Assembly: GCA_963710605.1 (NCBI GenBank)
Contig: CAVQBA010000004.1
Coordinates: 640,001-704,000, forward strand
Source of the DNA: an uncultured cyanobacterium
GTDB lineage: Bacteria > Cyanobacteriota > Cyanobacteriia > Cyanobacteriales > Cyanobacteriaceae
Direction: 5' to 3'
Length of the DNA stretch: 64,000 nt
Shown: piece by piece, positions 15,563 through 18,870 of the stretch
Position numbering within the stretch: the stretch's first letter is position 1
How the letters are laid out: every line of letters starts with the position of its first letter
Position numbers and translations under genes: made by a program
The notes under the pieces: model-generated
The model's database searches: none
Seen by the model: only the letters and a program-made list of their open reading frames with translations
Told to the model about the DNA's origin: nothing

Positions 15563-15587
15563 GTAGGGGCAGAATATTATTCTGCCC
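15563..15587 (+). repeat. GTAG-REP hairpin at the left edge of the NAD cassette
   Basis: GTAGGGGCAGAATATTATTCTGCCC; a near-identical reverse copy lies at 46365-46389. Confidence 0.85.
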
Positions 15588-15624: not shown

Positions 15625-15677
15625 TTGACAAATAAATGTCTTTGTGACATTATATGTTTAATGGCTAAGTGACATTA
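15625..15677 (+). promoter_or_regulatory. sigma70 promoter overlapped by two NrtR-type operators
   Basis: TTGACA (15625)-17 nt-CATTAT. Palindromes AATGTC-tttgt-GACATT (15635-15651) and AATGGC-taagt-GACATT (15660-15676) fit the GT-N7-AC core, the second with one mismatch. Confidence 0.8.
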
Positions 15678-15699
15678 TTAAAAAAGAGGATGATTAGCA

Positions 15700-16533
15700 A
15701 TGCCGATATTAATCAATCAAAAACCGATCGATACCTTGAAGTTTCCTGCGGGAGAAAGTCATGTGACTGTATCACCGAAGCAGATTACCCAGACAATTGA
15801 CATTGAAGCATTATTAGATAGTAACGATCGTATTATGGAATTGTTATTAACAATAGATGCTGTACGCCGTCTCAATCCAATTGCCAAAATTGAGCTGACA
15901 ATACCTTACTTTCCTTATGCCCGACAAGATCGAGTTTGTAACGCAGGAGAGGCTTTGAGTGTGAAGGTGATGGCGAATTTGATTAATAGTTTAAAATGCG
16001 ATCGAGTCACAATAATCGATCCTCATTCAGACGTTACCCCCGCCTTATTAAATAACTGCGATGTAATTACTCAAGCCGATATTATCGCTAAAAGTAACCT
16101 TGCAGGGCGAATCAAGGAAGAAAACTGGGCTTTAATTGCTCCCGATGCAGGTGCAGTCAAAAAGACTCAGCAAGTAGCCAAAAGTCTAGCTAGTGAAGAT
16201 TTTCTCCCCGATATTTTATACGCCGATAAAGTCAGGAATACGAAGACAGGTAAAATCACCCATACCAGATTTAAGGGTGAGGTAAACAAACGCAAAGTTT
16301 TAATTATCGATGATATTTGCGATGGTGGTAAAACTTTTATTGAATTAGCCAAGGTTTTACAAGCTAAAGGTGTAGAACAAATATATCTGTATATCACCCA
16401 TGGTATTTTTTCTTATGGTTTGGAAGTATTACAACCATATTTTCAAAAGATTTATTGTTATCACACTTTTTTGTCATCACCGCAACAAGACAGTGATTTT
16501 ATAACTATTCTCAAACCAACTATTAGCGATTAA
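15700..16533 (+). CDS. prs: Short, phage-like ribose-phosphate pyrophosphokinase homologue (candidate ADPR-PP synthetase)
   Basis: FPAGE, IPYFPYARQDR, DPHS, APDAGA, DDICDGGKTF and THGIFS motifs; 277 aa. Confidence 0.85.
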   Translation: MPILINQKPIDTLKFPAGESHVTVSPKQITQTIDIEALLDSNDRIMELLLTIDAVRRLNPIAKIELTIPYFPYARQDRVCNAGEALSVKVMANLINSLKCDRVTIIDPHSDVTPALLNNCDVITQADIIAKSNLAGRIKEENWALIAPDAGAVKKTQQVAKSLASEDFLPDILYADKVRNTKTGKITHTRFKGEVNKRKVLIIDDICDGGKTFIELAKVLQAKGVEQIYLYITHGIFSYGLEVLQPYFQKIYCYHTFLSSPQQDSDFITILKPTISD

Positions 16534-16591
16534 AAGACTAAAGTCTTTACTACAAAAATTATTAACTCTTAACTCTTAACTCTTAACTATT

Positions 16592-18064
16592 ATGAATCCC
16601 TTAACAGCGATCGATTTTTACAAAACTGACCATCGTCGTCAATATCCCGAAGGTACAACCCAAGTATATGCAAACTTTACTCCTCGTAGCGGTCGTTTGG
16701 CTAACGTAATCGATCGAGATGACATCAAAGTAGTATTCTTTGGATTGCAATATTTCATTAAAGATTTTTTAATTGATACTTGGAATCAAGAATTTTTTGA
16801 GCGAGATAAAACCAAAGTTGTCAGTCAGTATAAAAGAAGGATGGATACATCTTTAGGTGAAAATACGATCGATACCGCTCATATCGAAGCCTTACACGAT
16901 TTAGGTTATCTACCTCTCAAAATTAAAGCCTTACCAGAAGGAAGTAAAGTGCCGATGGGAGTGCCAGTTTTAACAGTCGTCAATACTCATCCTGATTTTT
17001 TCTGGCTAACTAACTATATCGAAACAATTATGTCTTGCTATTTATGGAAACCAATCACCTCAGCTACCACTGCCTTTGAATACAAAAAATTATTAACTAA
17101 ATACGCTAAACTGACAGGAACACCTTTAGATGTTGTTCAGTTTCAAGCCCATGATTTTTCCTTCCGAGGTTTATCTAGTTGGCAAGATGCGGCGATTAGT
17201 GGGGCGGCACATCTAACTTCTTTTTATGGCACGGATACCGTTAGTGCGATCGATTTATTAGAAGAATATTATGATATTGATGCTACCCAAGAATTGATTG
17301 GTGCATCAGTACCTGCCACCGAACATTCTGTTATGTGTATGGGTACATCTGAAGGAGAATTAGAGACATTTCGCCGTTTAATTGAAGATATTTATCCTCA
17401 TGGTATCGTCTCGATCGTTTCTGATACATGGGATTTTTGGCAGGTAATTACAGAATATCTAGTTTTATTAAAACAAAAAATTCTCGATCGTCAAGGAAAA
17501 GTTGTTATTCGTCCAGATAGTGGCAATCCTGTTAAAATTATTTGTGGTGATGATGATGCACCTATCGATACTCCTGAATATAAAGGGGCGGTTGAATGTT
17601 TGTGGGAGATTTTTGGAGGTACAAAAACCGAAACGGGATACAAAATGTTAGACTCTCACATTGGTTTAATTTACGGTGATTCAATTACATTGACTAGAGC
17701 AACAGAGATTTTACAAAAATTAAAAGCTAAAGGTTTTACTTCGGGTAATATTGTCTTTGGAGTTGGCTCTTATACTTATCAATATGTCACCCGTGACAAT
17801 TTTGGTTTTGCGGTTAAAGCCACTAGTGGTATCGTCAACCAAGAGCGTCGTGATATATTTAAAAATCCGAAAACGGGTAATGGTGAAAAAAAATCGGCTA
17901 GAGGTTTATTACGTGTCGAGAAAAAAGACGGTACTTTTGTTTTATACGAGCAACAAACACCAAACCAAGAAGCCCAAGGAGAATTAAAACCTATTTTTGT
18001 TGATAGTAAACTGGTTAAAACTCATAGTTTGACTGATATTCGTGCAAGAATAGTTAATAATTGA
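16592..18064 (+). CDS. nadV: Nicotinamide phosphoribosyltransferase homologue (candidate nicotinamide ADPR-transferase)
   Basis: DFYKTDHRRQYP, FFGLQY, HDFSFRG, SVPATEHS, SIVSDTWD, IRPDSG, YGDSIT, FGVGS and KKSARG motifs. Confidence 0.9.
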   Translation: MNPLTAIDFYKTDHRRQYPEGTTQVYANFTPRSGRLANVIDRDDIKVVFFGLQYFIKDFLIDTWNQEFFERDKTKVVSQYKRRMDTSLGENTIDTAHIEALHDLGYLPLKIKALPEGSKVPMGVPVLTVVNTHPDFFWLTNYIETIMSCYLWKPITSATTAFEYKKLLTKYAKLTGTPLDVVQFQAHDFSFRGLSSWQDAAISGAAHLTSFYGTDTVSAIDLLEEYYDIDATQELIGASVPATEHSVMCMGTSEGELETFRRLIEDIYPHGIVSIVSDTWDFWQVITEYLVLLKQKILDRQGKVVIRPDSGNPVKIICGDDDAPIDTPEYKGAVECLWEIFGGTKTETGYKMLDSHIGLIYGDSITLTRATEILQKLKAKGFTSGNIVFGVGSYTYQYVTRDNFGFAVKATSGIVNQERRDIFKNPKTGNGEKKSARGLLRVEKKDGTFVLYEQQTPNQEAQGELKPIFVDSKLVKTHSLTDIRARIVNN

Positions 18065-18126
18065 CAATTGATAAGAGTTTTATTATTTATTGCTAATTAC
18101 TAATTGCTAATTGCTAATTGTTTCTT

Positions 18127-18870
18127 ATGGATTGACAAACTTATAATTCAGAAAAAGAGTTTCTTAGTAATTATAATCCGAATATTTACGATCGTCCTAG
18201 TACATCAGTCGATACGGTTATATTTACTGTTTTTGATGGTGCGTTGCAAGTATTGTTAGTCAAACGAGACGATTATCCTTTTAAACATCAATGGGCGTTA
18301 GTTGGCGGTTTTATTGACCTTAAAAACGATCGTACTCTAGAAGATACAGCTAAAGGTAAATTAGCCGAAAAGACAGGGGTAGAAACTTCTTATCTAGAAC
18401 AATGTATGACGATCGGTAATAAAAATCGTGACCCTAGAGGATGGTCTGTTACTACAGTATATTTTGCTTTGTTGCCTTACGAACAAATTAAACTAAAAGC
18501 GGGTAAAGGTGCAGTTGACATTAAATGGTCGATCGTTACTGATAATAAAGTTATAGAAGATTTAGCTTTCGATCATAACCTCATTTTAGAGCAAGCGATC
18601 GATCGTTTACGTAACAAAGTACTTTACACCACTTTACCTGCTTATCTAATGCCCGAATTATTTACATTTAGAGATTTACAAACTGTCTATGAAATAATAC
18701 TCGATCGACAATTAGAAGTTAAGTCTTTTCGTCGTCGGATAGATAAAGCCAATATCCTTGAAGCAACTTCTCAAACTCGTCAGGATGCCAAACGCCCTGC
18801 AAAATTATATCGCTTGAAAGATAATGTTAATCCTTACTTCTTTTTAAGAAACCTCGAAGGAGCGATGTGA
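18127..18870 (+). CDS. nrtR: NrtR-family Nudix-wHTH repressor, with an in-frame TGA at codon 3
   Basis: RPSTSVDTVIFT, WALVGGF, degenerate Nudix box (AKGKLAEKTG), RDPRGW, LAFDH, FRRR and RPAKLY. The frame starts ATG GAT TGA CAA. Confidence 0.88.

Follow-up and report, generated by a model that had tools for sequence, protein, structure and literature searches.

The subject of this analysis is a three-gene unit in the genome of an uncultured cyanobacterium (assembly GCA_963710605.1, contig CAVQBA010000004.1), which lies in a stretch of 64,000 nucleotides, hereafter the window, within which all coordinates are counted; the assembly comprises 3.93 Mb and is 84.88% complete. The unit is a candidate for an NAD+ reconstitution operon of the type known as NARP1, which is mainly a phage pathway. 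Its genes are co-oriented on the plus strand in the order Adps-Namat-NrtR (Table 1) and encode a paralogue of Prs resembling the phage enzyme Adps (Pribosyltran_N, Pribosyltran and Pribosyl_synth domains), a NAMPT-family protein resembling Namat (NAPRTase and NAMPT_N), whose gene begins 58 nt downstream of the first, and a protein combining a Nudix domain (NUDIX, PF00293) with NrtR_WHD (PF21906), which from 18136 onward aligns along its entire length with the NrtR structure 3gz5 (206.6 bits). An earlier note on this DNA had described three co-oriented genes for a 277-residue Prs homologue with the motif DDICDGGKTF, a NAMPT homologue and NrtR, and had seen no nicotinamide mononucleotide (NMN) adenylyltransferase gene among them. 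The former is borne out by the list of open reading frames (ORFs) and by Pfam, NCBIfam and PHROGs searches, and the latter by the ORFs and their families, none of the genes inside the unit being an adenylyltransferase.

Table 1 Features of the unit and of the adjoining spacers, in window coordinates
Feature	Position	Strand	Description
Promoter-like site	15625-15653	+	-35 TTGACA (15625-15630), 17-nt spacer, TG-extended -10 CATTAT (15648-15653)
Operator 1	15634-15652		Palindrome AATGTC-N5-GACATT, core GT-N7-AC; occupies the promoter spacer and reaches into the -10
Operator 2	15659-15677		AATGGC-N5-GACATT, 25 bp downstream of operator 1, directly past the -10
Adps-like gene (Prs paralogue)	15700-16533	+	277 aa; from ORF list and Pfam/NCBIfam/PHROGs
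Namat-like gene (NAMPT family)	16592-18064	+	490 aa; from Pfam/NCBIfam/PHROGs
nrtR, ADP-ribose-responsive repressor family	18127-18870	+	247 codons, TGA at codon 3
Inverted repeat	15567-15587	+	Arms of 9 bp (GGGCAGAAT/ATTCTGCCC), loop of 3 nt; read by eye
Heptamer repeats	18088-18120		CTAATTG-like, about 4 copies; read by eye

The first gene is preceded by a promoter-like site whose -35 hexamer starts with the very base, 15625, at which the earlier note had begun the unit. With 10 of 12 matches it is the best of the 12 such sites between 15400 and 19400, and it is called a promoter because TTGACA and its spacing are conserved, not on account of scan counts: both are kept in six related cyanobacterial loci, L109 and L110 having TTGTCA instead. 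Two tandem palindromes cover this promoter and conform to the operator of NrtR, described as a palindrome of about 21 bp with the core GT-N7-AC (PMC2330246). Seven related cyanobacterial loci have kept the tandem arrangement, and operator 2 is a perfect palindrome in the relatives (ATGGC-N5-GCCAT). Across the genome, AATGTC-N5-GACATT occurs with at most one mismatch at only nine sites, two of which stand in tandem at this promoter. A matrix trained on six relatives, with the window left out, ranks the two window operators first (21.4 bits) and second (19.6 bits) in 3.93 Mb, the next site having 17.0 bits and all remaining matches lying at or below 17 bits. Among 63 untrained loci of other phyla, 22 have the best matrix site of the whole locus no more than 200 bp ahead of the Adps-like gene, and in 21 of these, from Proteobacteria, Bdellovibrionota, Actinomycetota and Melainabacteria, it scores at least 14 bits; none of the Bacteroidota loci among the 63 has a matrix match. 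The proposal of the earlier note that the unit stands under an ADP-ribose sensor agrees with these operators, which cover the promoter and are the top two matrix sites of the genome, induction itself being predicted from the sequence.

Inspection by eye revealed no operator-like site ahead of nadA or nadE, and the nrtR of this locus is the only one in the assembly, so that the regulon looks like this one operon. A regulon of a single operon has also been reported for Shewanella, where tandem sites in front of prs-nadV were demonstrated by gel shift (PMC2330246). In two loci of the related genus g4 (L138 in genome G004 and L110 in genome G009), both operator-like sites are retained in the Adps-Namat promoter with no nrtR within 6 kb; the regulator of this genus may be encoded elsewhere or may have been lost.

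The two enzymes

The reference for the first enzyme is Adps of the Vibrio phage ICP1, for which structures have been solved and activity has been validated in a liquid chromatography-mass spectrometry assay (PMC13586617). Its sequence was taken from a phage record, in which 19 of 19 named residues agree with the published numbering (PMC13586617), and was compared together with five housekeeping Prs, including the one of this genome. The window protein is 37.9% identical to ICP1 Adps and scores 298.6 bits against phrog_619 compared to 160.4 bits against TIGR01251 (cut-off 113), while the equivalog-level Prs models all remain far under their cut-offs, with 90-139 bits where 296-536 are needed. 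Adps has a remodelled PP loop, formed in ICP1 by Cys215-Ser220 behind Asp212-Asp213-Ile214 (PMC13586617). At this place the window protein reads DDICDGGKTF (residues 204-213) and ICP1 DDICDGAASF, compared to DDMIDTAGTL, of the DDM.DT.GT type, in housekeeping Prs. In total, 12 of the 19 named ICP1 residues are identical in the window protein, among them K185, D212-D213-I214-C215-D216 and F221. The catalytic Lys185 corresponds to Lys177 on a beta-hairpin that is longer than in housekeeping Prs and has the Adps-type form K.R[DN]..TG.I, and two of the three adenine contacts, Phe18 and Arg87, are kept as Phe15 and Arg75. The C-terminal alpha11-alpha12 module of Prs is absent, the alignment stopping ahead of the ...LGETIWRIHEDSSVSIMF module, and the protein has 277 residues compared to 315-340 in housekeeping Prs.

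In a tree of this family, six housekeeping Prs are split from 29 Adps-like proteins with an SH-aLRT support of 100, and the window protein stands with the phage Adps. A sequence search of the PDB gave an ordinary Prs as its top chain (88.9 bits), and the Adps structure entries of PMC13586617 were not among the matches. Nearly all published hallmarks of Adps are present in the 277-residue protein, and the reaction predicted for it is the conversion of ADP-ribose and ATP to ADP-ribose pyrophosphate (ADPR-PP) and AMP.

The second protein scores 549.8 bits (phmmer) against the PDB entries 9W5X/9W5W, which are the Namat of SPbetaL1 according to the data-availability section of PMC12774641, compared to about 239 bits for human NAMPT and 200.7 for 7yqo; its score against 9ke8 is 470.2 bits. 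In Namat, the adenine of ADPR-PP is bound by a selectivity clamp, in which a helix motif (SCH) is combined with a loop (SCL), the SCH having the signature GS-X-Phi-X-Phi-X-Phi-TRD with aromatic X (PMC12774641). The SCH of the window protein, GSYTYQYVTRD (residues 392-402), is the same as in ICP1. In the SCL, a position that allows Arg, Lys or Tyr is occupied by Arg35, which aligns with the stacking Arg40 of SPbetaL1, and the loop PRSGRLANVIDRDD exceeds the Nampt-type ESRGGK in length. When contact and catalytic residues are mapped by hand on the printed alignment, the clamp residues R40, F392 and Y396 of SPbetaL1 correspond to R35, Y394 and Y398, and the catalytic core F189, D215 and R306 to F189, D215 and R307. 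Of the 20 residues contacting NAD+ in SPbetaL1 Namat, 18 are identical and the other two changed conservatively (F392 to Y, A362 to S). An alignment with Nampt-type controls distinguishes the two types at four places, where the NARP1 type has GS[YF]TY.Y.TRD in the SCH, PRS.[RK] with a long loop in the SCL, HDFS.RG and IYGDSI, and the Nampt type GGGLLQ..RD, ESRGGK, HDFG.RG and IQGDGV; at each of these places the window protein follows the NARP1 type.

In a tree of 44 sequences, the window protein falls into a NARP1 clade with a branch length of 1.71 and an SH-aLRT support of 100. The clade also contains 25 NrtR-linked bacterial homologues, an Acinetobacter prs-nadV-nrtR locus, L111, L112 and all five phage NARP1 Namats, while three phage Nampts without Adps, seven cyanobacterial NadV (about 35% identity) and L113 lie outside. 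Both trees were quick IQ-TREE runs with SH-aLRT as the only support measure, and four phage rows are long-branched, which leaves unsettled how phage and bacterial sub-clades are ordered within the NARP1 clade. The phages represented are ICP1, a Felixounavirus (the genus of Bas63) and phages of Staphylococcus, Bacillus and Mycobacterium; SPbetaL1 fell outside the best 40 phage matches and is hence not in the tree, and KVP40 is represented by a related Schizotequatrovirus, Va3. The pair had been called NARP1-like from the letters alone, and in the clustering test both of its members group with Adps and Namat, apart from canonical Prs and NadV. The published hallmarks of Namat are all present in the 490-residue protein, for which sequence comparison predicts the reaction of ADPR-PP with nicotinamide to NAD+ and pyrophosphate.

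Some further members of the family deserve description. In two genomes of the same phylum, L111 (G092) and L112 (G036) encode NAMPT-family proteins of a third kind, which share 44-45% identity with that of the window, have the hybrid motifs GGILRN[YH]-SRD and IYGDGM and form basal branches of the NARP1 clade; the gene of L112 adjoins an Adps-like gene with the loop DDICDGGGTF. The Namat of Escherichia phage REP10 (L104:2459-4240) has 593 residues and aligns in two pieces, as do several Felixounavirus matches, which points to an insertion that the bacterial proteins do not have. In the Vibrio phage ICP1 isolate 2017_Dha_N (L022:3880-5276), two short ORFs annotated as hypothetical follow the Adps gene, and the Namat gene may be split in this isolate, other ICP1 isolates having a single gene.

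Distribution and genomic context

A scan of named genomes yielded 303 relatives of the second enzyme. The following locus counts rest on the best 80 of these (60-76% identity), which were chosen by likeness to the window protein and do not represent frequencies for bacteria at large. The 80 loci belong to Cyanobacteria, Melainabacteria, Alpha-, Beta- and Gammaproteobacteria, Bdellovibrionota, Bacteroidota, Actinomycetota and Verrucomicrobiota. An Adps-like gene lies within 4 kb in 70 of them, each time with the loop DDICDGG.TF (70/70), NrtR is encoded in 58, and 57 have both; the commonest order is Adps-Namat-NrtR (27 loci). Within the phylum of the window, any NAMPT-family gene occurs in 14 of 301 sampled genomes and the close type in only four, the window's own included. 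In its family, the close type was found in 9 of 20 genomes, namely in 3/3 of genus g4, 5/7 of g6, 1/2 of g1, 0/5 of g2 and 0/2 of g3. Identity to proteins of other phyla amounts to 72-74%, compared to 75-77% within the family. This patchiness among cyanobacteria, together with the almost equal similarity to other phyla, argues for horizontal spread, and sequence comparison makes it most likely that operator, both enzymes and regulator have travelled as one cassette. The trees of the two enzymes share sub-clades, so that the pair is inherited together. The flanking genes differ between genera. A housekeeping Prs is kept in all five carriers checked.

Among the phage records of the collection, the second enzyme has a homologue in 2044 and the first in 1572. 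The bacterial proteins form a sub-clade of their own with 60-77% mutual identity, and no true phage record is more than 57% identical to them. One record named as a phage, L125 (CAKLQF020000015.1, 'Acinetobacter phage MD-2021a'), is plainly a bacterial chromosome with fepC, an AraC regulator, tauE and a metH-like gene. It carries prsA_2-nadV and, annotated as a bifunctional NMN adenylyltransferase, a Nudix protein of 255 residues that its position and size mark as a probable NrtR; its second enzyme is 64% identical to that of the window, and the locus falls into the same clade in both trees.

Elsewhere in the assembly, nadA and nadE are present, whereas the Namat-like gene is the only gene of the NAPRTase family and pncB is missing. 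The earlier note had asked for a separate housekeeping prs and for nadD or nadM: the former exists apart from the window gene, while nadD, nadM and likewise coaD were not found in the 84.88%-complete assembly by PF01467, by TIGR00482 or in tblastn searches with probes from the same genus, and no NadR-type gene was found there or in the unit. The simplest reading here is a gap in the assembly, as two unlinked essential genes are missing together and nadD occurs in all 20 relatives searched. In genome G005 of the same family, a classical NadV (34% identity) is encoded directly behind a true NadM-Nudix (644.9 bits), whereas four Namat-type carriers of the family have no NadM. The idea that the unit helps the cell survive its own defence NADases lacks support, as neither SIR2_2 nor TIR_2, the NADase families searched for, was found in the assembly.

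Upstream of the unit lie cobN, a gene of the GFA family and cbiB. The inverted repeat lies 28 nt past the cbiB stop and, as a weak call, may be the cbiB terminator that parts the unit from upstream transcription; the terminator scan, which yielded nothing above chance, did not flag it, as it is not followed by a T-run. Downstream are a chorismate-lyase-like gene (Rv2949c family), an ORF of 230 residues, identified by eye as a candidate riboflavin synthase (ribE), and a large CheA-like hybrid kinase. No phage or mobility gene was found within about 6 kb on either side of the trio, and the G+C content of the unit (0.34-0.38) is near that of its flanks. The heptamer repeats lie between the stop of the Namat gene and the ATG of nrtR, in a spacer of 62 bp. 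Similar tandem repeats (CTAATTG, ACTCCTT and TTGAGAA types) occupy several intergenic spacers of this genome, including the one before nadA (G000:C6, about 528050-528200) and the one before nadE (G000:C4).

Interpretation and alternatives

The unit is probably a chromosomal NAD+ reconstitution operon of the NARP1 type that is equipped with its own ADP-ribose switch. In the proposed mechanism, NrtR dimers would occupy the two tandem palindromes over the -10 region and the likely transcription start, keeping the operon off. Upon cleavage of NAD+, free ADP-ribose would bind to the Nudix-like domain of NrtR, which would then leave the DNA. Using ATP, Adps would pyrophosphorylate the distal ribose of ADP-ribose to yield ADPR-PP, and Namat would couple the latter to nicotinamide, so that NAD+ is formed directly and the NMN adenylyltransferase step is bypassed. 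It has been reported that ADP-ribose frees NrtR from the prs-nadV operator in vitro, phosphoribosyl pyrophosphate (PRPP), ribose-phosphate, NMN and nicotinamide being without effect; the effect of ADP-ribose on DNA binding is described there for the NrtR of Shewanella and Synechocystis only (PMC2330246).

Several observations weigh against this reading. In the first enzyme, the third adenine contact of ICP1, Phe92, is replaced by Cys80, Cys being found in most of the bacterial relatives shown, and four donor-site residues are changed compared to ICP1 (V195T, C197T, A219K and F223E). The validated bacterial example, that of Paenibacillus foliorum, is far nearer to phage genes (72% identity to a phage Namat) than the window clade is, and an Acinetobacter NadV of the same clade has been treated as an ordinary NAMPT orthologue (PMC8892085). 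With regard to regulation, the promoter scan gave 12 sites for a shuffled expectation of 14.8, which is no excess, and the relatives of genus g4 carry the enzyme pair with no nrtR within 6 kb. The third protein reaches 239.3 bits against the NCBIfam NrtR equivalog NF050029, the cut-off of which is 400. Lastly, nrtR begins with ATG GAT TGA, a stop at codon 3 (18133-18135) through which the relatives read, and the NrtR switch may be non-functional in this strain.

The ATG at 18127 is placed like the start of the relatives, the N-terminus aligns with relatives that begin MTKE.. or MEEK..YNSE, and the reading frame remains open and NrtR-like as far back as 18136. Past the TGA, a TTG at 18244 is the first canonical start, which gives a 208-residue ORF (18244-18870). 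In view of the stop at codon 3 and the open frame upstream, this ORF is a truncated call of a gene of 247 codons, and a start at the TTG would drop the first strand of the Nudix fold. The TGA is either a real knock-out of the repressor, in which case the operon is probably constitutive, or a base error. A frameshift splits the housekeeping prs (G000:C7:126229-127150, minus strand) near its 3' end (...ATHAVFS, then the shift), and such damage in an essential gene means that the assembly carries errors; it suggests indel errors, which would also account for the low completeness score. No public sequencing runs or RNA data bearing on the stop or on expression are listed.

Alternatively, the enzymes could act in the classical way (Rodionov 2008), the Prs paralogue feeding PRPP to NadV for the synthesis of NMN and the adenylyltransferase being encoded elsewhere. 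The general family models are indeed matched (TIGR01251 above its cut-off, NF006629 with 595.5 bits), the Namat of SPbetaL1 keeps PRPP-dependent NMN synthesis in vitro (PMC12774641), and the handling of the Acinetobacter NadV as a NAMPT orthologue (PMC8892085) points in the same direction; nadD, moreover, may exist in the genome and be missing from an assembly of this completeness, since all 20 relatives searched have it. This route is nevertheless unlikely, as all Namat/Nampt columns and nearly all Adps/Prs columns are of the NARP1 type and the equivalog-level Prs models stay far under their cut-offs. Furthermore, four carriers in the family are without NadM, whereas in the genome with classical NadV the two genes are adjacent. 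NrtR has ADP-ribose as its inducer, which fits an ADP-ribose pathway induced by its own substrate better, and the dedicated Prs was termed 'quite unexpected' by the 2008 authors themselves (PMC2330246). The pair might also serve two purposes, running ADPR-PP to NAD+ and PRPP to NMN as substrate supply dictates and so combining general salvage with ADP-ribose recycling. The SPbetaL1 Namat accepts both substrates in vitro, and with a sole NAPRTase-family gene and no pncB this would perhaps be the only nicotinamide route of the cell. However, the PP loop of Adps holds the ATP donor where Prs holds the 5-phosphate of ribose-5-phosphate (PMC13586617), which speaks against the synthesis of PRPP by this paralogue, and NMN would still require an adenylyltransferase; such a double role is quite improbable.

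That the genes are the remnant of a prophage or the cargo of a mobile element, and hence an anti-defence pair rather than a cellular system, is very improbable. NARP1 is mainly a phage pathway, as the phage records counted above illustrate, the genes are patchy in cyanobacteria (four close homologues in 301 genomes), and the neighbourhood is not conserved between genera. Yet the neighbours are cobalamin, riboflavin and signalling genes with no phage or mobility gene nearby, the G+C content is close to that of the flanks, and the bacterial proteins keep to their own sub-clade. In addition, the pair is linked with a transcription factor of cellular origin and with the operators of the latter, and the trio is retained across three genera of the family.

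Beyond the window, we lean narrowly towards a broader proposal, according to which the NrtR-Adps-Namat cassette with its operators would be a self-contained NAD+ repair regulon, induced by its substrate and moved horizontally between at least six phyla, and the 'prs-nadV nicotinamide salvage' of Acinetobacter, Shewanella and many others would hence be direct recycling of ADP-ribose to NAD+. If this is true, it would explain why NadV is accompanied by a Prs of its own, a question raised in 2008, and in the window's strain a knocked-out repressor would leave the pathway permanently on. If the predicted chemistry holds, the products of NAD+ cleavage would not be waste in these bacteria, ADP-ribose inducing the very enzymes that consume it, and NAD+ would be restored in two steps with one ATP and no adenylyltransferase. 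Many annotations as nicotinate/nicotinamide phosphoribosyltransferase and ribose-phosphate pyrophosphokinase would then be wrong; the NCBIfam models NF006629 and TIGR01251 match both types. It would also favour the notion that phages took a housekeeping pathway from cells and turned it to counter-defence. As both of its halves are published, the idea of connecting NrtR with NARP1 is a small one.

Comparison with known systems

The phage NARP1 systems of SPbetaL1, Bas63, Fado and ICP1 (bioRxiv 10.1101/2024.02.11.579819; PMC12774641; PMC13586617) share with the window the clades of both enzymes and the gene order, and in addition the SCH motif, the SCL arginine, the PP loop, the catalytic lysine and the loss of the Prs C-terminal module. 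The window unit differs in being chromosomal and in having a repressor with operators, which the phages lack; its identity to ICP1 is 38% for Adps and 53% for Namat, and one adenine contact of Adps is changed (F92 to C). For the counter-defence role of phage NARP1, nothing at the window locus suggests a counterpart.

Chromosomal Adps and Namat are likewise combined in Paenibacillus foliorum, whose pair makes NAD+ from ADP-ribose and nicotinamide and neutralises an NADase system in E. coli (PMC12774641), although its proteins, 54% and 72% identical to those of SPbetaL1, are close to the phage genes. Osterman et al. report NARP1 in some bacterial genomes outside prophages and suggest housekeeping or regulatory roles (bioRxiv 10.1101/2024.02.11.579819), and according to the AntiDefenseFinder preprint, NARP1 is enriched in bacterial DNA outside mobile elements, 469 of the hits coming from Acinetobacter (bioRxiv 10.1101/2024.08.21.608784). 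Neither NrtR nor Nudix is mentioned in the main text of the latter preprint or in that of PMC12774641. Supplements aside, no paper was found that joins NrtR control with NARP1, the one full-text match mentioning them apart, and a full-text search for nadV together with ADPR-PP found no paper.

The Synechocystis nadM-nadV genes and the phage pathway NARP2 (Nampt and Nmnat, as in KVP40) also represent nicotinamide salvage by a NAMPT-family enzyme, in Synechocystis likewise under NrtR control. They differ from the window unit in that their route leads via PRPP and NMN and requires an adenylyltransferase, and their columns are of the Nampt type (GGGLLQ, ESRGGK, HDFG, IQGDGV), which is also found in G005 of the window's family.

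The closest precedent is the prs-nadV-nrtR operon described in 2008 (PMC2330246). All three genes are common to both, in the order of Acinetobacter, and the tandem operators before the Prs paralogue, the second, housekeeping prs and ADP-ribose as the effector are shared as well. That study read the enzymes as PRPP supply and Nampt, and the nrtR of the window differs by its early stop. Among the passages of its Table 1 that were consulted, none gives a cyanobacterial example, cyanobacteria being listed with nadM-nadV, pncB-nadD-nrtR-nadE and nadA. The Acinetobacter locus L125, which groups with the window in both trees, is of the type described in that study. Chromosomal NARP1 in bacteria (2024, 2026) and NrtR control of prs-nadV (2008) have both been published already, and the window operon is a cyanobacterial case of a widespread, known operon type. 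If the reading as an ADP-ribose-induced NARP1 operon is true, it would add to the pncB-nadD and nadM-nadV layouts a third layout of NAD salvage in cyanobacteria.

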